A model generated the notes under the pieces. That model ran no database searches. It saw only the letters and a list, made by a program, of their open reading frames with translations, and was not told the DNA's origin. A stretch of DNA of 64,000 nucleotides from Opitutales bacterium (GTDB taxonomy: Bacteria; Verrucomicrobiota; Verrucomicrobiia; Opitutales; Opitutaceae), in contig JBBRLB010000011.1 of assembly GCA_038231575.1 (NCBI GenBank), positions 1,488 through 65,487 of the forward strand, given 5' to 3'. Positions 14,482 to 46,724 of the stretch are shown here, in pieces (position 1 is the first letter of the stretch; each line of letters opens with the position of its first letter). Both the position numbers and the translations under genes were made by a program.

Positions 14482-14591
14482 GGTTCCAGTTAATCGCGGA
14501 AACGCGGCGGAGCGGAAGCACGGAAAGGGCGGGCGGCGTGCATTCGGGCTTGGCGTGGGCGGAAGCGACTGGGAGAACTATCGGACAATTC

Positions 14592-30854: not shown

Positions 30855-33800
30855 TTAATGGAAATCGTGCGACGCCTGCGCGGGCAGATCGGATTCCCGC
30901 AGCGGTTCGATCGTCTCGGCGCGCACGTGGGTGACGTTCGACACGTTTTGCAGACGTCCGGTGATTTTCAACGCGGGCTCCTGGGTGATGACGAGGCGCA
31001 GGCGTTCGAAGAGCTGCGGCACCACGACGGCGTTGGCGATGCCGGTTTCGTCCTCGAGGCTGAGGAAGACAAAACCCGCCGCCGTGCCGGGGCGTTGCCG
31101 GCAAATAACGGCGCCCGCGATGGTGACCGTCTGGCCGTTGGCCACGTGCCGCAAGTCTTTCGCCGGACACACCTCGAGCCGATCGCGGATCAAGGCCATC
31201 GGGTGCTCGCCGACAGTGAGGCCGAGGCCGGAAAAATCCGCCTGCACTTCCTCCCCGCGCGACATCGCGGCGAGCGGGGAGTCTTCGCGATACGCGTCGG
31301 CGAACTGCTTGAAGAGTGCCTCGTCATCCGACCACGCGGCTTCGACCTGCCAGAGCGCCGTGCGGCGGTGATGCGAAAACACATCCAGCGCACCGACGGC
31401 GGCGAGCGCGCGCCGCTCGGTGGCGGTGAAGTCCGAGCGCCGCAAAAAATCGTCGAGCGAGGTGAAGGGCTGTTCGTCGCGGGCGGCGAGCATCGCCCGA
31501 GCGGCCGCTTCGCGCAGGCCCTTCACGAAGCGCAAACCGAGGCGAATGCTTTTTCCCCCTGCGACCGTGCACTCCCAGCGGGAAGCGGCCACGCAGACCG
31601 GGTGGGCCTGCAACGCGTGGCGCCGGCCATCCTGCAACAGCGTCGCGGGCGAATAGAATCCCATCGGCTGATGATTGAGCAGGCTCGCGTAAAATTCCGC
31701 CGGCCGGTGAATCTTCAGCCACGTGCTCGCATACGCCAGCATCGCGAACCCAATCGCGTGCGATTCGGGAAAGCCGTAGGCGGCGAACGTGCGCGCGGAA
31801 TCACAGACGCGGTTGACGACGGCTTCATTGTGACCCTCGCGGCGGAGCGCGAGCATGAGCTGGGCGAGGGCGTGGTGCAGTTTCTCCGGTTGCTTGGTGA
31901 AGCCCATCGCGCGGCGCAATTCCTCGGCTTGCGCCCCGCTGAATTTCGCGAGCGTCATGGAAAGCTCCAGCATCTGCTCCTGAAACAAAATCACGCCCCG
32001 CGTGCGCGCGAGGATCGGTTTCACGAGCGCTTCGACGGAAGGATCGATGTAGTCGTCTTTTTCCACTCCGTCCCGCCGGCGGATGAGCGGATGGACGAGG
32101 TGGCCGGTGATCGGACCGGGCCGGATGATCGCGACTTGGATGGCGAGGTCGTAGAGGTTGACGGGCTTGAAGCGCGGGAGCGTCGCCATCTGGGCGCGGC
32201 TCTCAATTTGGAAAACACCCACGGTGTCGGCGGCGCGGATTTTCTCGTAGGTTTCAGGATCGTCGGGCGGGATGTCGTTGAAATTGTGCGGGCCGCCGCG
32301 GTGGGCGCAGAGTTCGAACGAATCCTGCAGGACGGCCATCATGCCGAGACCGAGAAAATCGATCTTCACGATGCCGAGATTTTCGCAGTCGTCCTTGTCC
32401 CACTGGCAGACGCTGCGCCCGGGCATGGTGGCGGGCTCGAGCGGCACGACTTTGTCGAGTTGATCGCGCGAGATGACCATGCCGCCGGAGTGCTGACCGA
32501 GATGGCGGGGCAGGCCCTGGAGGTGATGGTGCAACCGCACCATCGCTTCGGCGCGCGGATGCGGCGCGGCGATGCCCGCCATCCGGAGTTGCTCCTGCAG
32601 ATCGAGCGTCTGGGGAAAATCGCCATTGGCGTAGAGACTCGAAAAACGATCGAGCGCGTCGTCGCCGAAGCCGAGGACCTTGCCGATTTCACGCGTGGTG
32701 CTGCGACCGCGATAGGTGATGACGTTGGCGGTCATCGCAGCGCCGCGCATTCCGTAGCGACGGTAGACTTCTTGGATGACACTCTCGCGTCGATCACCAC
32801 TCGGCAGGTCGAGATCGATGTCGGGCCAGGACGGGTTGCCGTCGGCGCCGACGCGGCCGTCGCTGAGAAAACGCTCGAAGAGGAGGCGGTGCTTGAGCGG
32901 GTTGACGGCGGTGATGCCGAGGACGTAGCAAACCGCACTGTTGGCGGCACTGCCGCGGCCCTGCACGAGAATTTTTTGCTGACGGGCCCAAGCACAGATA
33001 TCCCAAACGATCAGAAAATAGCCGGAGAATTTCAGGCGGGCGATGAGTTCGAGTTCCTTGTTGAGTTGCAGCTGGAGATTTTCGGGCAGCGCTCCGAATC
33101 GTTCATGCGCGGCGGCGAAGGTGCGCGCGCGGAGATAGGTGTCCATCGTTTCGCCCGGCGGCGTGAGGAAGCCGGGAAATTGGTAGCCGAGATTTTCGAG
33201 CGTGAACGCGAGGGTGGCGTCGAGGTGGAGGGAGTTCGCGACGGCCTCGGGCAGGTCGGCGAAGCGCTCCGCCATCTCGCGGGCGGATTTCAGGCGGCGC
33301 TCGGCGTTGATTTCGAGGCGGCGGCCGGCGGCGTCGAGCGTCGTATGCCCGCGCAGGCAGGTGAACACATCGGCGACCATGCGATCGGCGGCGGTAGCGT
33401 AGGCGACGCCACCGGTGGCGAGCACAGGCAGGCGATGCGCGGCGGCCAGGTCGCGCAGGAAGGTCATCTCGCGCTCCTCGCCACGGATCCGGTGGCGCTG
33501 CAGTTCGACGAAGAGTCGATCGCGACCGAAGATCGTGAGAAGTTTCGCGAGGGAAAAATTCGCGGCGGCGGCGCCTCCGGTGCGCCAGGCGCGGCGCACG
33601 GAGCCGTCTTCGTCGCCGGTGAGGGCGATGAGTCCGCCGGAATATTTTTCGAGTTCGGTCCACGTGGCGAAGCAGGGGCGCTTGCGATCGGAGGGAGCAG
33701 GCAAGTGGCAACGGCTTCCCGCCGCCAAGTCAGGGGATTCACCGGCGGGAAACCGTGGCCCCTTCAAACCCGGGGCGCGCGGAGTCAGCTTCGCCTCGGT

Positions 33801-34091
33801 GATGAGCTGGCAGAGATTTTGGTAACCGGTGCGCGTGGCGACGAGGAGTGGAACGACATGGCCGTCCTCCATCGTGATTTCGGCGCCGACGCGGGCGCGG
33901 AGATTTTGCTCGCGGGCGGCGCCATAGAAACGCGGCGCACCGTAAAGCCCATCGCGGTCGAGCACCGCGACCGCGGGCAGTTCCAGTCGCGCGGCCTCGC
34001 GCGCGAGATCCTCGGGCGACGAGGCGCCGCGCAGGAAACTGAAGGCGCTGCGCGCGTGGAGTTCGACGTAGCCGCTCATGGTGCTAGTCAT
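30855..34091 (-). CDS. dnaE2: Error-prone DNA polymerase DnaE2 (ImuC)
   Basis: PHP-domain start YVELHARSAFSFLRGASSPEDL. About 1075 aa. The ATG at 34091 overlaps the imuB stop (ATGACTAG). ATG 34079 is an alternative start. Confidence 0.9.
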   Translation of the reverse strand: MTSTMSGYVELHARSAFSFLRGASSPEDLAREAARLELPAVAVLDRDGLYGAPRFYGAAREQNLRARVGAEITMEDGHVVPLLVATRTGYQNLCQLITEAKLTPRAPGLKGPRFPAGESPDLAAGSRCHLPAPSDRKRPCFATWTELEKYSGGLIALTGDEDGSVRRAWRTGGAAAANFSLAKLLTIFGRDRLFVELQRHRIRGEEREMTFLRDLAAAHRLPVLATGGVAYATAADRMVADVFTCLRGHTTLDAAGRRLEINAERRLKSAREMAERFADLPEAVANSLHLDATLAFTLENLGYQFPGFLTPPGETMDTYLRARTFAAAHERFGALPENLQLQLNKELELIARLKFSGYFLIVWDICAWARQQKILVQGRGSAANSAVCYVLGITAVNPLKHRLLFERFLSDGRVGADGNPSWPDIDLDLPSGDRRESVIQEVYRRYGMRGAAMTANVITYRGRSTTREIGKVLGFGDDALDRFSSLYANGDFPQTLDLQEQLRMAGIAAPHPRAEAMVRLHHHLQGLPRHLGQHSGGMVISRDQLDKVVPLEPATMPGRSVCQWDKDDCENLGIVKIDFLGLGMMAVLQDSFELCAHRGGPHNFNDIPPDDPETYEKIRAADTVGVFQIESRAQMATLPRFKPVNLYDLAIQVAIIRPGPITGHLVHPLIRRRDGVEKDDYIDPSVEALVKPILARTRGVILFQEQMLELSMTLAKFSGAQAEELRRAMGFTKQPEKLHHALAQLMLALRREGHNEAVVNRVCDSARTFAAYGFPESHAIGFAMLAYASTWLKIHRPAEFYASLLNHQPMGFYSPATLLQDGRRHALQAHPVCVAASRWECTVAGGKSIRLGLRFVKGLREAAARAMLAARDEQPFTSLDDFLRRSDFTATERRALAAVGALDVFSHHRRTALWQVEAAWSDDEALFKQFADAYREDSPLAAMSRGEEVQADFSGLGLTVGEHPMALIRDRLEVCPAKDLRHVANGQTVTIAGAVICRQRPGTAAGFVFLSLEDETGIANAVVVPQLFERLRLVITQEPALKITGRLQNVSNVTHVRAETIEPLRESDLPAQASHDFH

Positions 34092-35709
34092 ATTCGCCCT
34101 CGATGAACCAGGCGCCGTCGACGCGCAGGAGCCGGTAGAGTCCGCCGCCGGCCAGCGCGATGTCCCACTCAAGTCGCGACCACGCGCGATCGTTTTGCCA
34201 CCACTCGCCGCTGCTGGGCCAAACGAGGCTGCGAAAGGCAATTTCACCCCGGAGGCGCTCGGTCCAGAGGAACGTCGGGCGACCTTCCATGAACTCGAGT
34301 CGGGCCGGGAGCGGCGGGCGAAAACGGCGCAGCGGCGTGCTGAGGACGGGATGCAGGGGCGGCGACGCGAGCGGAGGAATCACGGCGGCGGGCGGGGTGA
34401 GTCTCACGGCATCGGGCCGATGCGTGTCTTCAAGTTGCGGCGTGCCCAGACGATCGGCGCCGACGAGGGCGGAGACGCGCGCGAGGGTCTCGGCGAAGCC
34501 GTGCGGATCGCGCAGGCCGGTTTCGAACAGTCCTTGCTGGCGGACGAGCGGGCGCGTGGGCGTGAGGCGAAGATCGACGGCGATGATCGAGGCGGCGGTT
34601 TGCAGCGATGCGAGATGCGTGTGCAGCGCGCGAAAAAGGATTTCCGGATCGGCGGTGGGCTCGGGCAGGCGGAAATCCCGGGCGTGCCGGGTTTCGTCCT
34701 CGAGGCGGAGCGTGAGCTCGATCTCGGCGGCGACGTGTTGCGAGGTGATCAACTCGAGCGAGAGGCGATCGAGGAAGCGGCGGAGGAGGAAGAGGAGGGG
34801 ATCGAGGGTTTCGATCGGGTCTTCGAATTCCATCGTGGCGGAAAAGGTTTGCGGCGGGATGACGGGGCGCAGCGGGCGCGGGTCGCCCCCGGCAGCGCGT
34901 TGCCAGACGGCGAGGCCCTCGGCGCCGAAGCGGCGCACGATGTCGTCGCGGGGCAAGGCCGTGAGATCGCCGAGCGTGCGCAGACCCCAGTTGGCAAAAA
35001 CCCCGGCGAGTTCAAGCGACGGATCGGCAAAGGCGAGGGGAAGTGGGGCGAGGAAGTTTTTTTCGTCGGGACTCGCGATGAAGCGGAGGGAAGATTCTTC
35101 GCCGGCCATCGTGCTCGTAATTTGAATCGTTCGCTCGGTGGGAGCGGAAGCGGGTGATTTTCCGGCAGGAGCACGAGAAAGATTAAGAGCACCAGAAGGA
35201 TTGAACGGAGTCGCCCTCGCGGCGTAGAGCGCGAGGAGCGGCGTGCGCGCCAGGCCGGCGGTGGCGGGGAGCGCGAGCCGCGCCAGTTCGGCGATGGCCG
35301 CGTGAGCCGCGGGGGTGAATTTTTCGCGAACGGAACCGCGGAGATCGATCGTGGAGATGCCGGGGGCGGTGGCCTCGATCGCGGGCGAGAGGGTGAAGGC
35401 GACGGCGAGGAGGGCGGCGCGGGCTTCGATTTCGGCGGCGAGGTTGGGCGCGCGAATGAGGAGCGTGGGGCAGCGCGCGACGGCTTGTGGGGCCGTCATG
35501 CCACGTTCGACGCCAGCGGCACGCGCGGTGGGGGTGGTCGCGAGGACGAGGGATTTCTTCCCCGTATTGGCGAAGAGCGCCGCCTTTCGACCCTGCTCTC
35601 TTCGGCTCGGCTCAGGGCCGGCAGGGCCGGCAGAATTATCGCGACTCGCGCGCTCCGTGCGCAGCACGGCGTAAAGAGCGAAGTCGGCGATGTGAAGAAC
35701 GGCGAACAC
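34084..35709 (-). CDS. imuB: ImuB (Y-family polymerase-like mutasome subunit)
   Basis: MFAVLHIADFAL...GVERGMTAPQAVARCP. Its position between imuA and dnaE2 fits. GTG start. Confidence 0.85.
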   Translation of the reverse strand: MFAVLHIADFALYAVLRTERASRDNSAGPAGPEPSRREQGRKAALFANTGKKSLVLATTPTARAAGVERGMTAPQAVARCPTLLIRAPNLAAEIEARAALLAVAFTLSPAIEATAPGISTIDLRGSVREKFTPAAHAAIAELARLALPATAGLARTPLLALYAARATPFNPSGALNLSRAPAGKSPASAPTERTIQITSTMAGEESSLRFIASPDEKNFLAPLPLAFADPSLELAGVFANWGLRTLGDLTALPRDDIVRRFGAEGLAVWQRAAGGDPRPLRPVIPPQTFSATMEFEDPIETLDPLLFLLRRFLDRLSLELITSQHVAAEIELTLRLEDETRHARDFRLPEPTADPEILFRALHTHLASLQTAASIIAVDLRLTPTRPLVRQQGLFETGLRDPHGFAETLARVSALVGADRLGTPQLEDTHRPDAVRLTPPAAVIPPLASPPLHPVLSTPLRRFRPPLPARLEFMEGRPTFLWTERLRGEIAFRSLVWPSSGEWWQNDRAWSRLEWDIALAGGGLYRLLRVDGAWFIEGEYD

Positions 35710-35757
35710 AGGAGAGGGACGAGTGGCCCGGGACGTGAGACGAGTCCGGACGGGCGC

Positions 35758-36402
35758 TCATGCCGTGGCGGCGGTGTGAAGGCGCTGGCGTTGCAGAGTG
35801 GGCGAGAGGATTGTGGCGAGCGCGGGACGTTCGAGGGAGAGCGCGGTGAGCGCGTGCGAGGCGTTGAGGAGGAAGCGGAGTTGGGCGCTGGGCACCGTGG
35901 CGTGCGGGGTAATGACGACGAGGGCGAGGTCGCTGGGTTCGGCGGCGCGTTGGAGGCGATACCAAAAGCTGGCGGGCGTGCGGCGCAGTTCGCGGTCGCT
36001 GGCGTGGCGTAGATCGAGGACGACGAGGCCGAGATTGGCGTCGCGGGTGAGAAGATCGGTGGCGGCGAGAGCTATCGCGGGCGTGCAGCGGACCCACACC
36101 AGGTGCGCGAGCAGATCGACAGGAAACGAGCCGGGATCGAAGGAGTCGGTGGCGTCGACGAGGGCGACGCGCGTGCGAGTGGCGCGGGTCGCGGCAAGCA
36201 GTTGCTCGAGGAGGAGATGACTGCCGCAGCTCGGCGCGGCGCAGACGATCTCGGTTACGGCGCCGAGCGGGAGTCCGCCGGCCGGATCATCGAGCGCGGC
36301 GAGGCCAGTGCGCAGCGCGCGCGCGACGACGCGCGGCGCGGTGGGAAATTTTTCGGCGAGTTTGCGCCGGAGCTCCGCCAGTTTCTCGGCCGCCGCAGGC
36401 AT
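35758..36402 (-). CDS. imuA: ImuA (RecA/SulA-like mutasome subunit)
   Basis: 214 aa. TGLAALDDPAGGLPLGAVTEIVCAAPSCGSHLLLEQLL. Located upstream of imuB-dnaE2. Confidence 0.8.
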   Translation of the reverse strand: MPAAAEKLAELRRKLAEKFPTAPRVVARALRTGLAALDDPAGGLPLGAVTEIVCAAPSCGSHLLLEQLLAATRATRTRVALVDATDSFDPGSFPVDLLAHLVWVRCTPAIALAATDLLTRDANLGLVVLDLRHASDRELRRTPASFWYRLQRAAEPSDLALVVITPHATVPSAQLRFLLNASHALTALSLERPALATILSPTLQRQRLHTAATA

Positions 36403-36767
36403 GAGACAGAAGGACGAAGGCCAGAGCGCAGAGCGTGAAGGCGAGGGAACGGGCGCCGGGCTTCACGGGGACTGAATCAACCCACCAAATCTTGATCGGC
36501 GTCGAAGTTTTCGCGGAGGGGCGTCCAGAGACGGAAGAGCGAATGCGTGCGGAAAACCTGGATCACGCCGGAGGTGTGCAGGGCGAGCAGGGTGAAACGG
36601 AGCGGACGGCGGGGGGCGGGTTTAGTGAAGAGTTGGAGTTTCATGGTGGGAAAGAGGGCGGAGTTTTTTTGACCGCGGATGACGCGGAGGATCGCGGACC
36701 AAGCCGGATGGCGGGAGAGTGATATCGGTGTGATCCGCGTAATCGCGGTGAAGCGATCGGGATGGAA

Positions 36768-37391
36768 TCAGCAGGCGCCGGTGCGCAGGAGGCCGACCAT
36801 CACGCCTTGGATGGTAAGCTCGGTGGTGGGGAGCAGATCGGGGTAGCGCGGGTTTTCGGCGCGGAGAAACGCCTGGCCGCGCTGGAGGAGAAAACGCTTG
36901 AGGGTGGACTCGCCATCGATGAGCGCGGCGACGATGTCGCGCGGGCGCGGCTCGCGGGGCGTGAGAAAGACGACGTCGTTCTCGACAATGTTGGCGCCGA
37001 TCATGGAGTCGCCGCGGACGCGGAGGGCGAAGACTTTGGTGTTGGCGCGCACGCCGAGCGCGGCGGCGTCGACGGAGATATGGCTGTCGGCTTCCTGCAC
37101 GGCGTCGGTCGGCAGGCCGGCGGGGATCACGCCGAAAAGCGGGATGCTCATGAGGGCGCTGCCCGGATGGTGATTGGGATGGAGGAGGCCGCGGGCCTTG
37201 CCGGGGAGGCGCTGGAGCGCGCCCTTTTGGGTGAGGGCGTCGACATGGCGTTGGACGGCGAACGGGCTCGCGAAGCCGAAGTGTGCCTGGATTTCGCGGA
37301 GCGAGGGCGACACGCCCGATTCGAGTTGATGGGCGTGGATGAAATCGAGAACCTGCTGCTGACGGGGCGTAAGAGAAGGGTTATCGGCCAT
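36768..37391 (-). CDS. lexA: LexA repressor
   Basis: MADNPSLTPRQQQVLDFI...SLREIQAHFGF. Cleavage and peptidase motifs are present (GDSM ... LKR). ATG at 37391; the track start at 37400 is a TTG inside the operator. Confidence 0.92.
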   Translation of the reverse strand: MADNPSLTPRQQQVLDFIHAHQLESGVSPSLREIQAHFGFASPFAVQRHVDALTQKGALQRLPGKARGLLHPNHHPGSALMSIPLFGVIPAGLPTDAVQEADSHISVDAAALGVRANTKVFALRVRGDSMIGANIVENDVVFLTPREPRPRDIVAALIDGESTLKRFLLQRGQAFLRAENPRYPDLLPTTELTIQGVMVGLLRTGAC

Positions 37392-37393
37392 AG

Positions 37394-37407
37394 TGTTCAA
37401 GTGAACA
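37394..37407. promoter_or_regulatory. Candidate LexA operator TGTTCAAGTGAACA
   Basis: Perfect TGTTC-N4-GAACA palindrome 3 nt upstream of the lexA ATG. It matches the LexA motif I recall being reported for Verrucomicrobia. Confidence 0.7.
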
Positions 37408-37524
37408 CGTCAGCGCCGAAATGCAATGTTTTGTTTTTGGCGCAGCACGATTTTTTAGATTCGAGCGTCGATTTGACATCAAATCTAAACCGACCAGTAT
37501 CCGACCAGTTAATCTCTTGAAATC

Positions 37525-37773
37525 ATGAACACGATCACTGTCGGCGCCTACGAGGCCAAGACCAAGCTCGCCCGTCTGCTCGCGCGGGTGTCGCGCGGCG
37601 GTGAAGTTATTATCACCAAGCACGAGAAACCTGTTGCACGTCTGATGCCGATCTCGCCCGACACGCGGCTGTCTGTCCAAGAATCTCTCAATGGGCTGGC
37701 CGCCATCCGCAGTCGCGCAGGACGAGGTTCCGAATCCCTCAAGCAGCTCATCGTCGCCGGCCGTCGCGCATGA
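37525..37773 (+). CDS. Phd/YefM-family type II antitoxin (VapB role)
   Basis: MNTITVGAYEAKTKLARLLARVSRGGEVIITKHEKPVARLMP. Its stop overlaps the downstream PIN gene start. Confidence 0.85.
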   Translation: MNTITVGAYEAKTKLARLLARVSRGGEVIITKHEKPVARLMPISPDTRLSVQESLNGLAAIRSRAGRGSESLKQLIVAGRRA

Positions 37774-38186
37774 CGCCGGTCGTGATTGATAGTTCGGTGA
37801 CGCTGGGTCTGGCGTTGCCGGATGAAAGTGGCGACGTGGTGACTGCGGCCGAGACGGCGATGCGCAAAGGCACGCCGTTCTATGCGCCGGCACATTGGAG
37901 CATCGAAGTCGCCAATGGCGTGTTGATGGCGGAGCGCCGCAAACGGATCACCCATGCCGATGCCCGCGCTGTGCTGAATCTGATTCGCCATCTGCCGGTC
38001 GAGATCGATGGTGAACTGACGCTTCATGCTTTCGACACCATTTCGGCTCTGGCGCGGCAATATAGTCTGACGACCTACGACGCGGCTTACCTTGAACTCG
38101 CGATGCGCCGGCGCGCGGCGCTGGCCACGCTGGATGCAGCCTTGCGAAAAGCGGCTTCGACAGCGGGCGTGCCACTTCTCGCCTGA
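37770..38186 (+). CDS. vapC: PIN-domain toxin VapC
   Basis: MTPVVIDSSV...TTYDAAYLELA. Acidic PIN residues sit at the expected spacing. Confidence 0.85.
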   Translation: MTPVVIDSSVTLGLALPDESGDVVTAAETAMRKGTPFYAPAHWSIEVANGVLMAERRKRITHADARAVLNLIRHLPVEIDGELTLHAFDTISALARQYSLTTYDAAYLELAMRRRAALATLDAALRKAASTAGVPLLA

Positions 38187-38222
38187 GCGTTCCATCTGCT
38201 CTCACGTTCATTTCTTTTCTCC

Positions 38223-39323
38223 GTGTCACGCGCCCTGGCCGATTTCAGTTTGTCCGAACTCCAGCAGCAATTCGCTGCGTGGGGCGCGAAGCCGTCGCAC
38301 GCGGCGCGGGTGCTGCGGGCGTATTACGAGAACGGCGGCGAACTGCCTGAACTCGTCGCGACTCCGACGTCATCGCGCACTTCGTCGGCGCGGCCTGGTT
38401 TCGCGCTGCCCGATGATCTGCTCGCGCGGCTCCGCACGGAACTCGCGCCCGGCGCAGCGGAGGTGGCGGTGCGCCAAGTCGCGGCGGACGGCACGACGAA
38501 ACTGCTCTTGCGACTCGGCGACGGGCGCACGGTCGAGTCGGTGCTGATGCCGGATTTTCGCGCGGACCGCGCGGCGGGTTGCATTTCCTCCCAAGTCGGC
38601 TGCGCGATGGGTTGTGATTTTTGCGCGACGACGAAGACCGGTTTCGAGCGCAACCTCACCGCCGGCGAAATCGTGGCGCAGTTTCTCGCGCTTCGTCGCG
38701 AAGCGCGCACCACGGGCCGCCGGCTGCAAACGGTCGTGTTCATGGGCATGGGCGAACCGCTGCTCAACCTCGACCACGTGATCGAAGCCGTGCGCCGCAT
38801 CGCCGACAACCCGCTTGGCGCGCTCGGTTGGCGGCAGGTGACGGTGTCGACCGTCGGCATTGTGCCGGGCATCGATGCGCTCGCCGCCACCGGCCTGAAC
38901 GTGAATCTCGCCGTCTCGCTCCACGCGCCCGACGACGCCACGCGCGCGTCACTCCTGCCGATGGGAAAACGTTTCGCCATCGCGGAAATCCTCGCCGCCG
39001 CCGATCGGTTTCAGGCGAAACGCGGCCGGCCGGTGACGATTCAATACTGCCTGCTCAAGGGCGTGAACGATTCCGCCGAACACGCGCGCACGCTGGCGTC
39101 CGTCCTCGGCGCACGCCGCATGCACGTGAATTTGCTGCGCTACAATCCCACCGGCCTCAGTCTGCGCGGCATCAGCTACGAGCCAACGTCCGACGACACG
39201 GCTGAGACGTTTGTCGCCGAATTGCGCACGCGCGGAGTCGTCGCACATTTCCGCCGTTCGCGCGGGCCGGAGATCGACGCGGCCTGCGGGCAACTGCGGC
39301 GGCGGGTTTCCGAGCCAGCATAG
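38223..39323 (+). CDS. rlmN: Radical-SAM 23S rRNA/tRNA (adenine-C2) methyltransferase RlmN
   Basis: CISSQVGCAMGCDFCATTK radical-SAM cluster motif ... MGMGEPLLN ... IDAACGQL at the C-terminus. GTG start. Confidence 0.92.
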   Translation: MSRALADFSLSELQQQFAAWGAKPSHAARVLRAYYENGGELPELVATPTSSRTSSARPGFALPDDLLARLRTELAPGAAEVAVRQVAADGTTKLLLRLGDGRTVESVLMPDFRADRAAGCISSQVGCAMGCDFCATTKTGFERNLTAGEIVAQFLALRREARTTGRRLQTVVFMGMGEPLLNLDHVIEAVRRIADNPLGALGWRQVTVSTVGIVPGIDALAATGLNVNLAVSLHAPDDATRASLLPMGKRFAIAEILAAADRFQAKRGRPVTIQYCLLKGVNDSAEHARTLASVLGARRMHVNLLRYNPTGLSLRGISYEPTSDDTAETFVAELRTRGVVAHFRRSRGPEIDAACGQLRRRVSEPA

Positions 39324-39815
39324 AAGGCATTAAGAACTAAAACCTGACTCCGCCTGCTCGCTCGGTTTCGGGCGCCGTGGCGATCATCTCGTCGGACCAC
39401 GCGATCACTTCGGGCGCTTCGACGAAGCTTTCGTGATGCGTTGGATAAAATATTCCGCCTTAGTCCGGATAGTTCATCTTCCGAACTCTTCAGAGGTCAT
39501 GATTATGCCCAGAGCGAAAGGCTGGTGTGAAGATCGCCCCGAGCACGGATGAGGCGAGGAGAACCCCGGTGGTTTTCACGGGGGGACAGATTCATGATGG
39601 GCAGAAAGCTTACCGCCACGAGTAACTCTGCTCGCGTGGATGCGAGTTAAGAACCAAGGACGGCTAGCGTAACCCGAGCGAGGATCGACCCAGCGAGAAG
39701 CTCAGGAAAGCGAGGATTGCCTTGGAGGAAAATCCTCCCGCGTAGGGTTGAGACCCACTCATGCGGAGGAAGAATGTCGGGAACCAGCGACCGATCCGCT
39801 CAATCTATTCTCGTT

Positions 39816-40403
39816 ATGAAAGCCCCCGCTCTCCCCCTGAGTGCTTTGGCCGCTGCCATCGCGACACTCGGCTCCGGCTGCGCCAGCAGCACCCCGCCCC
39901 CGCCCCCTCCTCCTCCCGCTTACTCGCAATACCCCAACTCCTATCCAGCCGACGAGTCTCGCACTCCGAACCACACCGCGCGGGGCGCCGTCGCCGGGGC
40001 GGTGGCCGGTGCCGTGCTCGGCGGGATTATCGGCAACAACTCCGAGCACGGGAACACCGAAAAAGGTGCCGTGATCGGTGCCGTCGCCGGCGGCATTGCC
40101 GGCGGTGTGATCGGTCACCATGCAGATCAGCGGGAGTCCGCCGGCGTTTACTCGCCGGACACGGGCTATGTCGTGCAAACCGTGCCCCAGCAGCCTGGAT
40201 CGGAGCCGTATGAGCAGGTGCCGCCGCAACCGGCGCAGCAAGCCGTGTGGATCCGCGGCCACTACGATTACGTCGGCAACGGTTATCAGTGGACACCGGG
40301 CCGGTGGGAGATTCCACCGGGCGGCGCACGCGTGTATATCGGCCCATCATGGCAGCCAGCGGCGAGGGGCGGCTACATTTACGTGCGCGGACACTGGCAG
40401 TGA
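39816..40403 (+). CDS. Lipoprotein with a glycine-zipper segment and C-terminal YXWGXW-type repeats
   Basis: MKAPALPLSALAAAIATLGSGC lipobox. GAVAGAVAGAVLGGIIG / GAVIGAVAGGIAGGVIG glycine zippers. WIRGHYDYVGNGYQWTPGRWEIPP and YIYVRGHW repeats. ATG 39774 is an alternative start. Confidence 0.75.
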   Translation: MKAPALPLSALAAAIATLGSGCASSTPPPPPPPPAYSQYPNSYPADESRTPNHTARGAVAGAVAGAVLGGIIGNNSEHGNTEKGAVIGAVAGGIAGGVIGHHADQRESAGVYSPDTGYVVQTVPQQPGSEPYEQVPPQPAQQAVWIRGHYDYVGNGYQWTPGRWEIPPGGARVYIGPSWQPAARGGYIYVRGHWQ

Positions 40404-40550
40404 GCCTCGCGTGCAAAATGGTATCCTCGGTTCACAAAACTGGCGGTGCCCAGAGCCTCCTTTTGCTGTAAACCCGCCGAATGAGAGGGGGTGAATGTTT
40501 GCGTTCAGCTCCCCACCTACCGCTGGTCCCGCTCATCGCCGATCGTTGTC

Positions 40551-42710
40551 TCACTTCGCCAGCGGATCGGGCCGGAGCTGGAAGTGCATGACTTTGCTCG
40601 TGGTGCCTTTCCCGGTCTCCATGTGAAACGGCGCGCGCGTGCTCACGCACGCCCAGAGGCCGCGGCCTTTCCAGCCGGCCTTCGCGTCGTCGATGCGGCC
40701 GTCCATCCACTTGGTATAAAACCCGAGCGGGTAGGGCACGCGCAGGATCACCCACTGGCCGTCCTTCAACGCGAGCAGGCCCTCGGATTCGTTGCCGGTG
40801 TTGATCGGCGTGTTTTTACCGAGGCCCAGCGTGTCGAACTGATCGACCCACGTGTAGTAACTCGCCTCGGCGCTGCCGCCGGTCTTCACGCCCTGCAACT
40901 GCGGCAACGGTTCCGGATAAAATGTCCAGCCCTCGCGCGCGTGCTGGCCCGTCGCGGTCGGGCCGTTGAGCGGACCCTTCACTTTGCGCCGATCGAAACT
41001 CGCCATGTGCCCGCTCGCGAGCGCGACCCACGCCACGCCGTCGCGATCGATGTCCATCCCGCGGGGCGAGAAACCCTCGATGGGCTCACCCTTGTCATTG
41101 AGCGGGAGTTCGTAATATTCGGCGAGCGCCGTTGAGGGCGGATTCGCTCCGGGATTCAGTCGCACGATCGCGCCGGGATAACTGAGCACCGAGCCCCACA
41201 CGGAGCCGTCGGGTGCCGGCGACACCGAATAAAACGGCGCGTTGATGCGTTTGTCCTTCGCGGGATCGACGGGGTCGTTGGGCTCGACGTAGGCGTCGCG
41301 GCGGCCGTTGCCGTTCGTGTCGAGAATGAGCGCGGTCCAGCCTTGCGACGCGACCTCGTCGCCCGTCTCGAGAAATTTTTTCGTGTTCAACCAGCCCACG
41401 ACCTGGCCGCCGCCGCTCGTCCACGCGGTGTTGTTGGCGTCCTCCGCGAACATCACGTGATGCGTGCTGAAGCCGGTGCTGATGTGCGTGTATTTCTGCG
41501 TCTTCGGATCATACATGCCGAGGTGGCGGCTCGCGTTGGCGAGCGGGAAAAGTTTTGCCGACTCGAAAGCCGAGCCCTTGCGGAAAACTTCCGGATTGGC
41601 CGACGGCCGCACGGTCGCGGTGATCCAGACGCGGCCTTCGCCGTCGAACATCGGATTGTGCACGTTGGCCTTGCTGTTCCAGATAATCTCGTCGCCCCAA
41701 TACGGCGAGGCGCCCGGTTTTTCCTGCGCGGCCGCCGGTTTCGTCGCCGGATCGCGCACCGTCAACGGCACGCGGCTCGTCGTGTGATGCACCGGATCGA
41801 GCACGGGTAGGTAGTCGGCGCTGAGCTCGAGCGAGCCGTAGAGGAGACCGTTGGCGTTGACGGTGGGGTTGCGGCGGTCGGTCGAGACCACGTCGTGGAG
41901 ATAGGCCTTCGGATCGGCCCAGTCCCACTGCGTGATGACGACGTTGCGCTCGATCCCCTGCGGCCGGCGCGGTGCCGGCGGCACCTCGCCCGCGGCGATG
42001 CGATCGGTCCAGTCGGCAAACATTTTTATGGCGCGCTCGCGGCCGACGCTGGCGAGCGTGCGGACCATGTCGGCGCCCGCCTGGCCCGAGAGAATCCGGC
42101 GTTCCCAGGCCTTCTCGGTGGACTCCAAGCCGTGAAACAGATCGGGCAGCTCGCGCGTCGCCTGCGTGCCGAGCGCGTGACACGAGAAGCAGCCGCCGGA
42201 TTTGATGATGCGGAGAAACTGCGCCTGATTTTTGATCGTGGGTGAAATGCCGTTGCCGATGGTGCCGGGAAATTCTTCCGGCGCCGGCGGACGCAACAGC
42301 GAATACCAATAGCCCGCCGGATAATAATGCGCGGCGGCTTTCGGAGTCGGCGCGATGACGGCAGAGAGATTGAGCGTCTTGCCGGGCGCGGATTTTAGCT
42401 TCGCGGAATCAACGAGACCATAGCCGCGCACCCACACGTCGTAATTCGCCGCCGGGAGTTCCGGGAGCACATAACGCCCGCGATCATCGGTCACGACGAT
42501 CTTCGCGAACTTGGTCGGGAGGTCCGTCGTCTCCGCGATCACCCACACGCCCGCCTCGGGGCCGGCCGGGCTCGTGACGACGCCCTCCAGTGATCCAGTC
42601 CCTGGCGGCGGTGATTGACCGAAACTCAGAGTGACACCGACGAGGAATAGAAAGAGCGCGCCAGTGATCGGCGCACGCAATGAGAAGCCGGAGTCGAGGA
42701 GAAGTTTCAT
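40551..42710 (-). CDS. Secreted multidomain protein: carboxypeptidase-regulatory-like domain, single CXXCH heme-c motif, large beta-rich C-terminal region
   Basis: Signal peptide MKLLLDSGFSLRAPITGALFLFLVGVTLSFG. GSLEGVVTSPAGPEAGVWV...VTDDRGRYVLPELPAANYDVWV. The only heme motif is GGCFSCH. The track start at 42884 adds an implausible 58-aa extension. Confidence 0.7.
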   Translation of the reverse strand: MKLLLDSGFSLRAPITGALFLFLVGVTLSFGQSPPPGTGSLEGVVTSPAGPEAGVWVIAETTDLPTKFAKIVVTDDRGRYVLPELPAANYDVWVRGYGLVDSAKLKSAPGKTLNLSAVIAPTPKAAAHYYPAGYWYSLLRPPAPEEFPGTIGNGISPTIKNQAQFLRIIKSGGCFSCHALGTQATRELPDLFHGLESTEKAWERRILSGQAGADMVRTLASVGRERAIKMFADWTDRIAAGEVPPAPRRPQGIERNVVITQWDWADPKAYLHDVVSTDRRNPTVNANGLLYGSLELSADYLPVLDPVHHTTSRVPLTVRDPATKPAAAQEKPGASPYWGDEIIWNSKANVHNPMFDGEGRVWITATVRPSANPEVFRKGSAFESAKLFPLANASRHLGMYDPKTQKYTHISTGFSTHHVMFAEDANNTAWTSGGGQVVGWLNTKKFLETGDEVASQGWTALILDTNGNGRRDAYVEPNDPVDPAKDKRINAPFYSVSPAPDGSVWGSVLSYPGAIVRLNPGANPPSTALAEYYELPLNDKGEPIEGFSPRGMDIDRDGVAWVALASGHMASFDRRKVKGPLNGPTATGQHAREGWTFYPEPLPQLQGVKTGGSAEASYYTWVDQFDTLGLGKNTPINTGNESEGLLALKDGQWVILRVPYPLGFYTKWMDGRIDDAKAGWKGRGLWACVSTRAPFHMETGKGTTSKVMHFQLRPDPLAK

Positions 42711-42837
42711 AGTCCGTGTCCTTTCACGAAGCGAGGGAGTGGGGCAGCAACCGCCGGATGATCGAACGCCCGGCGGTGGCGTGAACGGCAACACACTGAC
42801 CTCCCCGAGGCAACGTCGATGTGGGTTGTCTCGTTGC

Positions 42838-43133
42838 TCACATTGTGAGGTGCTCGGCCCAATAGCCCGGCCTCCGTTTGCCATGCATCACTGCGACGAC
42901 GTGCAGCCGTTCGGGTTCAATCGTGTAGAGCAACTTGAACGGAAATCCCGCACGACGCATTTGCGCACCGGTCCGCGCAGGCGCGGCCACACTTTGGGAT
43001 GCGCCGTTATGCGCGCGACGGTGAGCATCGCCGCTTGATAGAATCTCAAGCCCAAGCCGGGGGACCCAGCCTGATAATAATCGATCGCCGCCTGAAACTC
43101 CGCGTCAGCCTCGGGGTGGAAGAGCGCGTTCAC
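42838..43133 (-). pseudogene. RelE/ParE-family toxin with a -1 frameshift
   Basis: The N-terminal frame reads MNALFHPEADAEFQAAIDYYQAGSPGLGLRF...VRKCVVRDF. The family-typical C-terminus (P)FKLLYTIEPERLHVVAVMHGKRRPGYW is only readable after a one-base shift at GG 42941-42942, where GGG is expected. Confidence 0.75.
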
Positions 43134-43243
43134 AGGCCCAGCCGTCGCTGCGCCTTGGCAAAGACTTCCTCCGCCGGCACACCTTTGACTGCACCGCTCG
43201 TCAATTCCTCGGCCCGTCGCTCAGCCGTGTCAGCCCAAGCGGC
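43130..43243 (-). pseudogene. 5'-truncated addiction-module antitoxin (only the C-terminal 37 codons remain)
   Basis: AAWADTAERRAEELTSGAVKGVPAEEVFAKAQRRLGL matches the C-terminal half of the small 'putative addiction module component' antitoxins. There is no start codon. Its upstream part is replaced by the rlmN fragment. Its stop overlaps the toxin GTG. Confidence 0.65.
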
Positions 43244-43319
43244 TTTCCGCCGTTCGCGTGGTCCGGATATCGACGCGGCGTGCGGGCAACTCAGGAGGCG
43301 TAATGAAATATTAGCATGA
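43244..43319 (+). pseudogene. Orphan second copy of the rlmN 3' end (last 24 codons plus stop)
   Basis: Encodes FRRSRGPDIDAACGQLRRRNEILA*, compared with FRRSRGPEIDAACGQLRRRVSEPA* at 39248-39323. There is no upstream rlmN body. Confidence 0.85.
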
Positions 43320-43381
43320 GCTGCGCGTCTGCTGGCTGAGTGACGCGTGACAAGTTACGAGTTTCTGCCTACAGAATCTGA

Positions 43382-43972
43382 ATGCTCTTTGCCGAAATTA
43401 TTGAAAACCACGGCATCGATTTAGTTAATGCTGTCGCTGTTCCATTTGTTGTTTCTCTAGTCGTTGGGATACCTCTTGCGATCTATGCCGGATTAGTGGG
43501 ATCGCGACTTGTTGGGTTCTACGAGACTCGCACTGCAGCTGTTCAGGAATTGATGTTTTTGCCGCGAGCGCTTTCAGAGGCTGGAAATATTCGTAAGGCG
43601 AATTTGAGACTCGCTGAAATGTGGGCAGCCACACGAGTAGCTTTTAATGGTCAGAACCAAGCCGAGGCTTCGGCAGTTCTCGATCGCTTGAATAGAGAGG
43701 CGATCGGATTTTACAGGCACGCCTTCCTGACGCAGATGAGCTTAGCTGAGATAAATGCGGTTATGGGTGACGCTCAGGCTATGAGTGAGGAGCGCTGGTT
43801 TTCGATGAGTTGTGGCATTATCGAGCAAAACACGATTGGCTTAAACCAGCTTCGCGAAATTGAATCTTTAGAGCCTAACTACTCGGTGATTTTTGAAGTG
43901 CCAACTTTGGGACGCTGGTTGCGTCGCAGCGATTGCGGCGACTGCTGCTCGAATTGTAAACGAGTGCTTTAA
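43382..43972 (+). CDS. Orphan hypothetical membrane protein (196 aa), AT-richer than its surroundings
   Basis: One predicted TM helix (AVAVPFVVSLVVGIPLAIYAGLVG), a helical body, and a Cys-rich tail CGDCCSNC. Its codons (TTA, ATA, AGA, AAT, TTT) are otherwise rare in this window. Confidence 0.65.
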   Translation: MLFAEIIENHGIDLVNAVAVPFVVSLVVGIPLAIYAGLVGSRLVGFYETRTAAVQELMFLPRALSEAGNIRKANLRLAEMWAATRVAFNGQNQAEASAVLDRLNREAIGFYRHAFLTQMSLAEINAVMGDAQAMSEERWFSMSCGIIEQNTIGLNQLREIESLEPNYSVIFEVPTLGRWLRRSDCGDCCSNCKRVL

Positions 43973-43974
43973 TC

Positions 43975-44079
43975 TTACGCCTTCTTATTCCGTCCGCCCT
44001 TTGCCTCGATGTTCAGGTAAGTCTCATTGAGCATCTGGCTTTCGTAAAGTTCGAGGAGGCGGACGCCTTCGCGCGGCTT
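43975..44079 (-). pseudogene. Orphan second copy of the speA 3' end (last 34 codons plus stop)
   Basis: Encodes KPREGVRLLELYESQMLNETYLNIEAKGGRNKKA*, compared with KPREGVRLLELYESQMLNKTYLNIEAKGGRKKKA* at 44781-44885. Confidence 0.85.
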
Positions 44080-44384
44080 CAGGCGGACAGGGGTTCGACT
44101 TCGGCTTCGATGCGGCGACCGAGCGCGGTGCGGGCTTGCTCCAGATCGTAAGCTTGCTGGAGATTCAGCCAGAAGCGCTCACCGGTGCCGAAGAAACGGC
44201 CGAGGCGCAGCGCGGTGTCGGCGGTGATGGCTCGGCGCCCTTTGGTGATCTCGGTGAGGCGCGAGGCGGGAATGCCCGTGCGCTGGCTCACTTGATAGCA
44301 GCTGAGGTCGTGCGGTGTGATCCACTCCTCGAGCAGAATCTCCCCGGGCGTGATATTGGAAACGACGGGCAGTTTGGTTTTCAT
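44079..44384 (-). CDS. higA: HigA-family antitoxin (XRE helix-turn-helix)
   Basis: ITPGEILLEEWITPHDLSCYQVSQRTGIPASRLTEITKGRRAITADTALRLGRFFG. Confidence 0.88.
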   Translation of the reverse strand: MKTKLPVVSNITPGEILLEEWITPHDLSCYQVSQRTGIPASRLTEITKGRRAITADTALRLGRFFGTGERFWLNLQQAYDLEQARTALGRRIEAEVEPLSA

Positions 44385-44412: not shown

Positions 44413-44694
44413 TCAGTGGTAATCTACAATTTCAACGTTGTGGGCATCTTCGCCGGCCCAACGGAAGCAGAGGCGCCACTGGTCGTTTATGCGAATGCTG
44501 TGTTGGCCGCGGCGTGAGCCCTTGAGAGCTTCCAGTCGATTGCCGGGTGGCAGGCGCATGATGTCGAGTCGATCGGCGGCATCAAGTTGGAGGAGCTTGC
44601 GTCGGGCGGCGCGTTGGATGTCAGGCGGCAAGTGACGTGAAGCCGTGCCGCCAAAGAGCTTTTCGGTCTCAGCGTCAGCGAAGCTTTTGATCAC
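44413..44694 (-). CDS. higB: HigB-type (RelE-fold) plasmid-maintenance killer toxin
   Basis: MIKSFADAETEKLF...LEALKGSRRGQHSIRINDQWRLCFRW. Toxin-first gene order is typical of HigBA. GTG start. Confidence 0.88.
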   Translation of the reverse strand: MIKSFADAETEKLFGGTASRHLPPDIQRAARRKLLQLDAADRLDIMRLPPGNRLEALKGSRRGQHSIRINDQWRLCFRWAGEDAHNVEIVDYH

Positions 44695-44780
44695 GAAGGC
44701 CAGGGTAGGCCACGTGACGATGTTCGCAAGCAGAATAGTTACGCGAAGCGTAACTATGGATTCGAACTACAGATCCACGC

Positions 44781-46724
44781 CTACGCCTTCTTCTTCCGCC
44801 CGCCCTTCGCCTCGATGTTCAGGTAGGTCTTGTTGAGCATCTGGCTCTCGTAGAGTTCGAGGAGGCGGACGCCTTCGCGGGGTTTGACCATGTCCTTCTT
44901 CGTCGCGGCATCGATCTGCACTTTCATTTTCCGGCACAGATCCTCTTGCTGGTATTGCACGCCTTCGATCACGTCGGCGATGCGGCTGCCGCTCAGCGCT
45001 TCTTCAATATAGAAGCCGTTCGGCTCGTCGTCTTCGAGGAACACGTGGACTTCGTTCACGCGGCCGAAGAGGTTGTGGAGGTCCCCCATGATGTCCTGGT
45101 AGGCGCCGGTGAGAAAGATGCCGAGGTAGTAGGGTTTGCCGTTGAGCGGGTGGAGCGTGATGTAGTCGCGCACGTCCTGCAGATCGATGAAGCGATCGAT
45201 CTTGCCGTCGGAGTCGCACGTGATGTCGACGAGGATGGCGTTGACGGTGGGCTTTTCCTTGAGCCGGTGGAGCGGCGCGATCGGGAAGAGTTGATCGAGA
45301 CCCCAGTGATCGAGCAGCGACTGGAAGACGGAGAAATTGCAGACGTATTGGTCGGCGAGGAGCTTGTCGAGGTCGTGGAGTTCCTCGGGCTGGTAGCCGG
45401 ATTTTTTTCCTTCCTTCGCGATCTGCTCGCAGATTTGCCAGAAGAGCGATTCGGCGGCGGCGCGGTTTTCGAGATCGAGATAGCCGAGGTTGAAGAGGGA
45501 GAACGCCTCCTCCTTTTTCTGCAGCGCATCGTGGAACCGCTCAAGCAGGCCGAGCTTGGTTTTGTTCTTCAACATCACCTCGAGATCGGTGACGACTTTG
45601 TGCTTTTCGTCGGGCTCGTGCTGCTTGCCGAGTGACTCGCGCTTGTTGATCCGCTCGAACACCTCGACGACGAGCATCGAGTGCTGCGCGACGACGGCGC
45701 GGCCGGACTCGCTGACGATGTCGGGGACGGCGACGCCGGACGAGGTGCAGATTTCGCGGATGTTGAAGACGACATCGCGCGCGTATTCCTCCATCGAGTA
45801 GTTCATCGAGCTTTCGAAGTTCGTGCGCGAGCCGTCGTAGTCGATGCCGAGGCCGCCGCCGACATCGAGGTAGCCCATCGGGAAACCCATCTTCGCGAGC
45901 TGGCAGTAGAAGCGCGTGGCTTCGACGACCGCGTTTTTGATCGTGAGGATGTTCGGCACCTGCGAACCGATGTGGAAATGCACGAGGCGCAGGCACGATT
46001 GCAGTTTCGCGGCGCGGAGTTTTTCGCAGGCGAAAAGAATTTCCGCGGTGTTGAGACCGAACTTGGCGTTGTCGCCGGTCGAGGTCGCCCAACGGCCTTC
46101 CCCGCGCGTCTGGAGTTTCGCGCGAAAACCGATCATCGGTTTCACGCCGGTCTCAGCGGCGAGGCGGATGATGTCGTCGAGTTCGGAGAGTTGTTCGACG
46201 ACGAGGATGATCTTCTTGCCGAGCTTGCGGCCGAGGAGGGCGAGCCGGATGTAATCCTGATCCTTGTAGCCGTTGCAGATGATGAGGCGTTGGGCGCCTT
46301 CGTGCATCGCGAGCGCAATCATCAGCTCGGGCTTGGAGCCGGCCTCGAGGCCGAAGTTGAACTCCTTGCCGGCCGCGACGATCTCGTCGACGACCTCGCG
46401 GAGCTGGTTGACCTTGATCGGGAAGACGCCGCGGTAGTCGCCCTTGTAGCCTTCCTCTTTCATCGCCTTCAGGAAAACTTGGTTGAGCTGGACGACGCGG
46501 TGGCGGAGCAAATCCTGAAAGCGGATGACCATCGGCGCCTTGAGGCTCATGCCGAGGGCCTCGTTGACGACATCGAGCACGCGGATGCCGCGGCCATCGG
46601 TCAGCGGCTGGACGTTGACGAAGCCATCGTCATCGACCGAGAGATGCCCGGAGCCCCAGCGTTTGAAGCCGTAGTGCTCTTCGGACTTGGCGGCCGACCA
46701 GGCGGCGGAGGATTTGGTTTTCAG
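44781..46724 (-). CDS. speA: Biosynthetic arginine decarboxylase SpeA (start uncertain; CTG proposed)
   Basis: FPIKVNQ...GLEAGSKPEL...NGYKD...HFHIGSQ...DVGGGLGIDY. The conserved N-terminal segment EEHYGFKRWGSGHLSVDDDGFVNVQP lies upstream of the first ATG/GTG/TTG (GTG 46580). The only near-cognate start in the open frame is CTG 46724. Confidence 0.85.
   Translation of the reverse strand: MKTKSSAAWSAAKSEEHYGFKRWGSGHLSVDDDGFVNVQPLTDGRGIRVLDVVNEALGMSLKAPMVIRFQDLLRHRVVQLNQVFLKAMKEEGYKGDYRGVFPIKVNQLREVVDEIVAAGKEFNFGLEAGSKPELMIALAMHEGAQRLIICNGYKDQDYIRLALLGRKLGKKIILVVEQLSELDDIIRLAAETGVKPMIGFRAKLQTRGEGRWATSTGDNAKFGLNTAEILFACEKLRAAKLQSCLRLVHFHIGSQVPNILTIKNAVVEATRFYCQLAKMGFPMGYLDVGGGLGIDYDGSRTNFESSMNYSMEEYARDVVFNIREICTSSGVAVPDIVSESGRAVVAQHSMLVVEVFERINKRESLGKQHEPDEKHKVVTDLEVMLKNKTKLGLLERFHDALQKKEEAFSLFNLGYLDLENRAAAESLFWQICEQIAKEGKKSGYQPEELHDLDKLLADQYVCNFSVFQSLLDHWGLDQLFPIAPLHRLKEKPTVNAILVDITCDSDGKIDRFIDLQDVRDYITLHPLNGKPYYLGIFLTGAYQDIMGDLHNLFGRVNEVHVFLEDDEPNGFYIEEALSGSRIADVIEGVQYQQEDLCRKMKVQIDAATKKDMVKPREGVRLLELYESQMLNKTYLNIEAKGGRKKKA

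Follow-up and report, generated by a model that had tools for sequence, protein, structure and literature searches.

How can accessory DNA accumulate between two convergent housekeeping genes and leave both of them intact? The question is raised by a 64,000-nucleotide stretch from an Opitutales bacterium (assembly GCA_038231575.1, contig JBBRLB010000011.1, positions 1,488 to 65,487), which is called the window here and in whose own coordinates its features are given. In the window, rlmN converges on the arginine decarboxylase gene speA, which is encoded on the minus strand, and each of the two genes is present both as an intact copy and as a second, detached copy of its 3'-end, referred to as an orphan end. 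With a probability of about 0.6, we interpret these repeats as the scars of gene-end displacement, in which each event consisted of one homologous and one illegitimate crossover. The locus is an insertion hotspot that is rich in toxin-antitoxin (TA) modules.

Results

Duplicated 3'-Ends of rlmN and speA

An earlier note on this DNA had reported that the end of rlmN occurs twice, and a scan for direct repeats bears this out. Positions 39248-39304 and 43244-43300 match over 57 nt with 88% identity, for which the chance expectation is ~3e-12 given the base composition of the window. The terminus of the intact gene reads FRRSRGPEIDAACGQLRRRVSEPA up to the stop codon, and its last 76 nt (39248-39323) constitute the intact copy of the repeat; the orphan reads FRRSRGPDIDAACGQLRRRNEILA up to a stop codon of its own. 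Eight of the 19 shared codons differ, seven of them synonymously and one by an E/D replacement, and the longest identical run is 15 nt. The left limit of the similarity (43239-43244) was found where the note had placed it, but the right limit does not coincide with the stop codons, since nucleotide similarity ends at 39304/43300, after the RRR codons and 19 nt before the stops. The last five codons are dissimilar (VSEPA in the intact copy and NEILA in the orphan) and equal in number, and it is for this reason that the stop codons are in register. The orphan was also confirmed, by our own count, to be AT-richer at synonymous sites and to be followed by DNA of ~50% GC, compared with ~64% for the window. 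It retains the family-consensus PDID and an intact in-register stop codon, and it therefore appears to have decayed little since its displacement. A 106-aa open reading frame (ORF) at 42999-43319 that ends in the orphan tail was called as a gene on a public contig (L081, described below); this ORF is an artefact whose first 80 codons come from the opposite strand of the remnants of a ParE toxin gene and its antitoxin gene.

The second long direct repeat, which is absent from the earlier note, lies at 43976-44079 and 44782-44885 (104 nt, 90% identity) and is the 3'-end of speA. The rlmN and speA pairs are the sole long direct repeats in the 64 kb, and the duplicated speA ends flank a higBA module. 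Beginning with rlmN, the order is cargo 1 (39324-43243), the orphan rlmN end, a 655-nt AT-rich spacer with an ORF of its own (ORF196), the orphan speA end, higA-higB, and speA. The two orphan ends face one another and look like a fossil rlmN/speA junction that is nested within the present junction. Most of the information at this locus is held by the speA twin and the nested architecture. A search for older orphan ends inside the cargo or the spacer found none.

Synonymous Bias and Junctions

Codon differences were counted over three orphan/intact pairs, namely the rlmN and speA pairs of the window and the speA pair of L082, the locus of the closest relative. In total there are 22 synonymous and 6 nonsynonymous differences (79% synonymous), with ratios of 7:1, 8:2, and 7:3 for the three pairs, respectively. 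If all substitutions were random and neutral, 24% would be expected to be synonymous, and no simulation of this model reached the observed fraction. Duplication in situ was modeled by letting the orphan decay neutrally while the intact copy takes only synonymous changes, which raises the expectation to 38% (binomial P = 1.7e-5). The bias thus holds in the rlmN pair, for which the note had argued that each copy evolved as a working gene end in a lineage of its own, and in the two further pairs. Because the differences are biased in this manner, each pair joins DNA of two lineages that are ~10% apart.

The junction between cargo 1 and the orphan rlmN end (J1, 43243|43244) cuts an antitoxin gene midway. 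The N-terminal half of this gene is missing, and the adjoining ParE gene is frameshifted. At the junction between the orphan speA end and higA (J2, 44079-44081), the higA product ends in EVEPLSA at a TGA stop codon that is supplied by the out-of-frame speA sequence G TGA AG (Val-Lys). HigA is 10 residues shorter than its sole locus-level homologue, that of L089, and when judged against this single homologue, higA has apparently lost ~10 codons at J2. The microhomology at J2 is at most 2 nt by our own reading of the alignment, with L089 and L084 as proxies for the donor. Judged by their nonhomologous positions, J1 and J2 are illegitimate joints.

The earlier statement that no integrase lies between the rlmN copies was upheld over a wider range: Pfam, NCBIfam, and PADLOC identified no integrase or transposase among the cargo ORFs or in the 12 kb on each side. 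No recombinase was found in the two cargo segments of L082 or in the cargo of a more distant locus, L075, which together with the two segments of the window makes five. Inverted repeats were not found at the cargo ends. The scanned flanks contained no intI-like gene; no search for attC structure was made, and the bounding repeats are gene ends rather than attC sites. With a length of 57-104 nt, a divergence of 10-12%, a synonymous bias, and no accompanying transposase, the repeats are unlike the target-site duplications of transposons. No tRNA gene, Rfam RNA, promoter, or terminator was found in the region.

The possibility of an assembly artefact had also been raised and was checked against an independent Logan assembly of run SRR19962015. 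A contig of 1833 nt from this assembly (L081) is 100% identical to positions 42208-44040 and, because the match covers this range, spans J1 and the whole of the orphan rlmN end. An assembly error at J1 is unlikely.

The Same Site in Relatives

Relatives were obtained by scanning genomes with RlmN and metagenomes with SpeA and from exact-protein look-ups; RlmN, HigA, and HigB themselves were not on record in look-ups of this kind. The comparison of downstream synteny that the earlier note had proposed revealed that the content between rlmN and speA is hypervariable among close relatives. The site is empty in L084 (RlmN 86% identical), where the stop codons of rlmN and speA are 22 nt apart. It is occupied in L087 (86%) by a histidine kinase gene and an orthologue of the lipoprotein gene of cargo 1 (86% nucleotide identity) and in L086 (89%) by other genes after rlmN, and in L001 (90%) the gene order shared with the window extends no further than the end of rlmN. 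In L089, a speA-anchored locus with no rlmN beside speA, the same higBA (92/95% amino acid identity) directly follows speA, and there is no orphan.

The same architecture with different TA modules is present in L082, whose RlmN is the most similar (92%). In L082, rlmN is followed by brnT-brnA, a short orphan tail of rlmN, a 150-aa ORF that is unannotated, an orphan speA end of 134 nt (93% identical to its intact partner), vapC-vapB, and speA. The displaced rlmN tail of L082 and the sequence downstream of it match the tail that is attached to rlmN in the window and the sequence downstream of that tail. The 11-mer TAAAACCTGAC is found at the matching place in L082 and has only one other, unrelated, occurrence among 170 loci.

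Orphan speA ends were also identified in L168 (~429-567) and L169 (~1168-1302). In these two loci and in L082 (6119-6257), the first base of the orphan is the G of GATCGAC, which lies 45 codons upstream of the stop; the breakpoint in the window is 34-35 codons upstream of the stop. The upstream, element-side flanks of the shared GATC boundary are unrelated among the three. This boundary, a Sau3AI/MboI-type sequence, is possibly a recurrent break site. The orphan in L168 keeps its downstream gene, which looks native because the same gene follows speA in the short European Nucleotide Archive contig L170. The 5'-end of L170 is itself an artefact in which the Illumina TruSeq adapter GTGACTGGAGTTCAGACGTGTGCTCTTCCGATCT (positions 1-45) is fused to speA to give a fake orphan ORF (P0142); as a consequence, only L082, L168, and L169 were used as additional speA orphans. 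Short ORFs in databases that end in a speA C-terminus call for scrutiny before they are used.

An independent orphan rlmN end of 42 nt was found in L075, a metagenome-assembled genome of a distant member of the Verrucomicrobia with an RlmN that is 56% identical. It lies 1.7 kb downstream of the intact gene (copies at 5893-5937 and 7631-7675) and carries two nonsynonymous changes in conserved residues. The cargo consists of a FIST-domain gene and an 86-aa ORF and includes no TA module. A different kind of repeat occurs in L009, where a dispersed sequence of ~170 nt is present in four copies (1641-1815, 11299-11485, 14307-14491, and 17280-17484; 78-89% identity), one of them ~280 nt downstream of rlmN. 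This is possibly an element of the miniature inverted-repeat transposable type.

Features of the Locus and Its Flanks

The features between the two intact genes are collected in Table 1.

Table 1. Coordinates of the intact genes, orphan ends, and intervening features in the window
Feature	Position	Strand	Basis and remarks
Intact rlmN (366 aa, radical SAM)	38223-39323	+	ORF; Pfam PF04055; 86-92% amino acid identity to RlmN of relatives
Noncoding remnant downstream of rlmN (393 nt)	39324-39716		First ~70 nt, with the rlmN tail, align to the displaced rlmN tail region of L082 (5532-5600)
Glycine-zipper lipoprotein	39717-40403	+	Pfam Gly-zipper; 86.3% nucleotide identity to L087 13233-13913; L087 orthologue lies between rlmN and speA
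777-aa secreted protein, carboxypeptidase-regulatory-like domain	40551-42884	-	Pfam match below threshold
ParE-type toxin pseudogene	42838-43133	-	Frameshift splits it into ORFs 42888-43133 and 42838-42990
Antitoxin 3' half (Unstab_antitox/TIGR02574)	43133-43243	-	37 aa match only PF09720 positions 28-54/54 and TIGR02574 positions 33-65/65
Orphan rlmN 3'-end	43244-43319	+	19 conserved codons, five-codon tail, stop
AT-rich spacer with ORF196, read as the former rlmN/speA spacer	43320-43974	+	Composition
Orphan speA 3'-end	43975-44081	-	34-35 codons and stop; 89.9% identity to the L084 speA end
higA	44079-44384	-	Pfam; NCBIfam TIGR02607 positions 3-80/81
higB	44413-44694	-	Pfam/NCBIfam
Spacer between higB and the speA stop	44695-44780	-	Conserved with L089; palindromic operator-like motif TTACGC..GCGTAA
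Intact speA (arginine decarboxylase)	44781-46724	-	Pfam; 96-97% amino acid identity to L082, L084, and L087; intact repeat copy formed by the last ~105 nt (44781-44885)

When the frameshift in the ParE pseudogene is corrected, the resulting 98 aa match PF05016 over positions 3-88/89 (E 4e-7); the single fragments do not match. The gene for the 777-aa protein is unmatched at the rlmN/speA locus of the five closest relatives compared (L001, L082, L084, L086, and L087). A megaplasmid of Microvirga ossetica carries a match to it (64.6% at the nucleotide level over 2 kb) that is annotated as a carboxypeptidase-like regulatory domain protein, and the 777-aa protein contains a CxxCH motif (CFSCH). 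This cargo protein probably belongs to a widely exchanged gene pool.

ORF196 (43382-43972) has a GC content of 0.48, and 0.48 at third codon positions (GC3), in a genome of 64% GC. It is an ORFan, with no homologue among 5.8e9 proteins and no match in Pfam, NCBIfam, or PADLOC. An N-terminal membrane helix is apparent in the protein, the C-terminus of which is Cys-rich; the AlphaFold2 model, with a predicted local distance difference test score of 43.5, is unusable. At the other end of speA, codon 46722-46724 is CTG where L084 has a TTG start. The conserved N-terminal 48 residues of SpeA are in frame, and the first canonical start is the GTG at 46580; from the sequence, speA would either start at CTG or else be N-terminally shortened.

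The 12-kb flanks encode HrpB, a TonB receptor, DnaE2, ImuB, an ImuA-like protein, LexA, Phd-VapC, YajC, SecDF, RecJ, and a hybrid kinase. An SOS-mutagenesis cassette of lexA, the imuA-like gene, imuB (IMS), and dnaE2 (30858-37400) is directly upstream of the hotspot, and recJ (50015-51736) is 5 kb downstream. RecJ has been reported to suppress homology-facilitated illegitimate recombination (HFIR) in Acinetobacter (PMC3240628). A phd-vapC TA module (37440-38221) lies between lexA and rlmN, where it reaches the start of rlmN and substitutes for ~110 nt of a spacer element that is kept in L082, L084, and L001 (GCGCTTGGCATCGGGCG..TTTCCCTGCGTGGCTGCGCGG). It is an insertion-deletion without duplication. 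In L001 the lexA-rlmN spacer contains a different insertion of ~1 kb.

Discussion

Because the converging stop codons are 22 nt apart in one relative, cargo could enter this site without killing a gene only by landing in a gap of ~22 nt or by bringing a replacement gene end. In the proposed displacement, DNA of related Opitutae lineages would have been added from both sides, with each event combining a homologous crossover in one of the two genes with an illegitimate joint that lay a few dozen nucleotides upstream of the resident stop codon. Integration of a recircularised fragment by a single crossover would be an equivalent route. Each gene would then end in a donor-type 3'-end with the cargo next to it, which would be the lipoprotein gene, the gene for the 777-aa protein, and the ParE/antitoxin remnants on the rlmN side and higBA on the speA side. 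The resident 3'-ends would have been moved inward as untranslated orphans and, with the ORF196 spacer between them, would represent the former rlmN/speA junction. Homology suitable as an anchor exists on one side, since more than 1 kb upstream in both genes is 85-93% identical in relatives and the DNA beyond is unrelated. The earlier note had left the choice between an att-type and a homology-anchored integration scar. The homology-anchored type fits this anatomy, whereas the absence of an integrase, the cut in the antitoxin gene and, judged against one homologue, in higA, and the speA breakpoint, which differs between the window and L082, speak against the att type.

That the orphans are the resident copies, in what order the events took place, and by which molecular route are all inferred. 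Judged from the parallel cases L082 and L168, it is more probable that the orphan is the original end, moved from its place. The L082 orphan stays with sequence that is shared with the window, the L168 orphan appears to be attached to its native downstream gene, and homology would explain why the added DNA lies at the rlmN/speA locus. The earlier note had hinted at the AT-richer orphan as the foreign copy, a point that composition and identity profiles do not decide. Clues to the lineage of origin were also sought. ORF196 has no homologue, the NEILA ending is absent from the 59 close RlmN sequences inspected, and a peptide search with the C-terminus of the orphan speA found no protein with ...LNETY...RNKKA.

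Several observations weigh against displacement of the resident ends. No import breakpoint emerged when identity to four relatives was followed in sliding windows along rlmN, speA, and the flanks, although the power of this comparison is low because the relatives are all about equally distant. The orphan rlmN end is identical to the intact copy at 49/57 positions and to the closest relatives at 46-50/57. The placement on a tree that the earlier note had proposed gave 40-52/57 identities to 72 relatives and no resolution, because the motif encoded by the 57 nt hardly varies. The GC3 of the orphan (72%) is among the lowest ~10% of the genome's windows but within their range, and it is similar to that of L084. 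The VSEPA tail of the intact copy resembles the tails of relatives, which would fit equally well if the intact copy were native. Classic single-strand HFIR mostly gives deletions rather than duplications, so a variant with a circular intermediate or with break repair must be invoked. The common GATC start of three orphan speA ends in unrelated contexts is unexpected of purely random joints. At J2, the independent contig stops inside the orphan speA end, short of the junction. The truncation of higA is judged from one homologue, and the conserved domain of HigA is complete; the 10 missing residues fall outside it and could be specific to L089.

In a rival reading, the inner 836-bp piece (43244-44081) is the foreign DNA. 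Part of the rlmN/speA junction of a relative would have entered a native spacer rich in TA modules, with a small deletion, and the intact ends and both TA modules would be native. The older layer of L082 shares the intact rlmN tail and the sequence after it, and this tail also resembles those of relatives. The lipoprotein is orthologous to that of L087 at the same locus, higBA follows speA in L089 and has diverged about as much as speA, and ORF196 is compositionally alien in its GC3. The intact speA end clusters with that of L082 (95%), whereas the orphan speA end is at ~88-90% from all relatives. What makes this reading unlikely is that two homology-free joints would have landed the piece in its own orthologous locus, a coincidence without a mechanism, and that the nested pattern of L082 would require a second such accident; the orphans of L082 and L168, moreover, appear to be attached to native downstream DNA. 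It is quite improbable that the repeats are the attL and attR sites of decayed site-specific elements in the 3'-ends of rlmN and speA, whose integrases were later deleted. Imperfect direct repeats of a gene 3'-end around cargo are the classic signature of such elements, selection on gene ends carried by attP would likewise favor synonymous differences, rlmN is the reported insertion site of an actinomycete integrative element that has 11-nt repeats (PMC9513070), and one GATC boundary is common to three orphan speA ends. Neither an integrase nor a remnant of one, however, is present in the five cargo segments, two of which are only 0.7-0.9 kb and are filled by a TA operon and its promoter. The junctions cut the antitoxin gene and, relative to one homologue, higA; the element-side flanks of the GATC boundary differ, the speA boundary of the window is unlike that of L082, and the identical run within the rlmN pair is short.

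A chimera of two strain variants of this locus, joined into one contig during assembly, is very unlikely. The source is evidently a metagenome contig, J2 is without independent support, and public short contigs do hold artefacts such as the adapter chimera L170. On the other hand, the stretch from J1 through the whole orphan rlmN end and ORF196 into the orphan speA end was reproduced at 100% identity by another assembler, and L082 and L075, which come from other projects, have the same architecture. The joins, in addition, are located where homology starts, not within the shared k-mers in which graph mis-joins arise, and identical runs do not exceed 26 nt. A long target-site or tandem duplication formed in situ as the cargo inserted, with the spare copy decaying afterward, would explain the direct orientation and the inserted DNA between the copies. 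It is scarcely credible in view of the synonymous fraction of 79% where 38% is expected, the PDID and in-register stop retained by the orphan rlmN end, and the absence of terminal inverted repeats and of a transposase.

If the resident ends were displaced, the locus provides a natural example, in uncultured Opitutae, of a process that is known mostly from transformation experiments and polymorphic-toxin loci. Foreign DNA would have come to lie next to an essential-type gene, the old end of which would survive as a datable fossil. Since two convergent genes were hit and the orphans preserve the previous junction, the order of acquisitions could be read from the sequence. Displacement would also explain how cargo could build up in a 22-nt gap with both genes undamaged. 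For annotation, small database ORFs labeled "arginine decarboxylase" (for example, L082 6120-6257) can be artefacts of orphans, and orphan gene ends may pass for att sites. It is a speculative idea, to which we give little credence, that gene-end displacement at convergent housekeeping genes regularly serves to spread TA modules and other small cargo among Verrucomicrobia without an integrase, perhaps with preferred break sites (GATC). If true, foreign DNA would be captured with a replacement gene end through stimulation by restriction or breaks, and not through sporadic accidents.

Comparison with Known Systems

Islands that are integrated at att sites in the 3'-ends of tRNA or protein genes have a direct repeat of the 3'-end that brackets the cargo, the copy on the element side restores the gene, and tandem accretion leaves internal partial copies, all of which resembles the arrangement at rlmN and speA. 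An actinomycete integrative and conjugative element in rlmN of Streptomyces is known (PMC9513070). The rlmN/speA site differs from such islands in that there is no recombinase and there are no conserved element ends, the junctions cut the antitoxin gene and apparently higA, and the speA breakpoint of the window is not that of L082.

HFIR offers a parallel in its joints, which typically have 3-10 bp of microhomology and had none in 3/4 E. coli clones (PMC3240628). In E. coli conjugation, 56/60 one-sided products duplicated part of the homologous segment, and the duplications in the 14 that were sequenced measured 109-950 bp (PMC3240628). The likeness lies in the single homologous anchor, the nonhomologous joint with little or no microhomology, and the foreign DNA beside the anchor; duplication of the anchor segment, as in most of the E. 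coli products, is the architecture seen at rlmN and speA. HFIR, however, was observed, whereas the rlmN/speA events are deduced from natural genomes of uncultured Opitutae. The duplications at rlmN and speA are also shorter (57-134 nt), the partners are ~10% diverged, and both sides of a convergent pair were hit, which left nested orphans. HFIR and the single-crossover integration of recircularised fragments are familiar from Acinetobacter, S. pneumoniae, and P. stutzeri.

C-terminal displacement with the formation of orphan arrays has been reported for Rhs, CdiA, and type VI secretion effector-immunity loci (Jackson 2009; Kirchberger 2017). For the orphan arrays of type VI secretion systems and Rhs, a mechanism resembling HFIR and independent of an integrase has been proposed (PMC5361080, Kirchberger 2017). 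In these systems, as would be the case at rlmN and speA, recombination in the conserved upstream part of a gene supplies a new 3'-end along with linked cargo, the old end is moved downstream and becomes an orphan, and successive events stack. The two cases differ in what is selected. The variable 3'-ends of polymorphic toxins are themselves the payload, whereas rlmN and speA are housekeeping genes whose new ends encode the same conserved protein sequence, except for one or two substitutions and the five-codon tail of rlmN; unrelated accessory DNA, mostly TA modules, forms their payload. Most likely, the repeats at rlmN and speA are a known kind of recombination scar and not a new mobile element.

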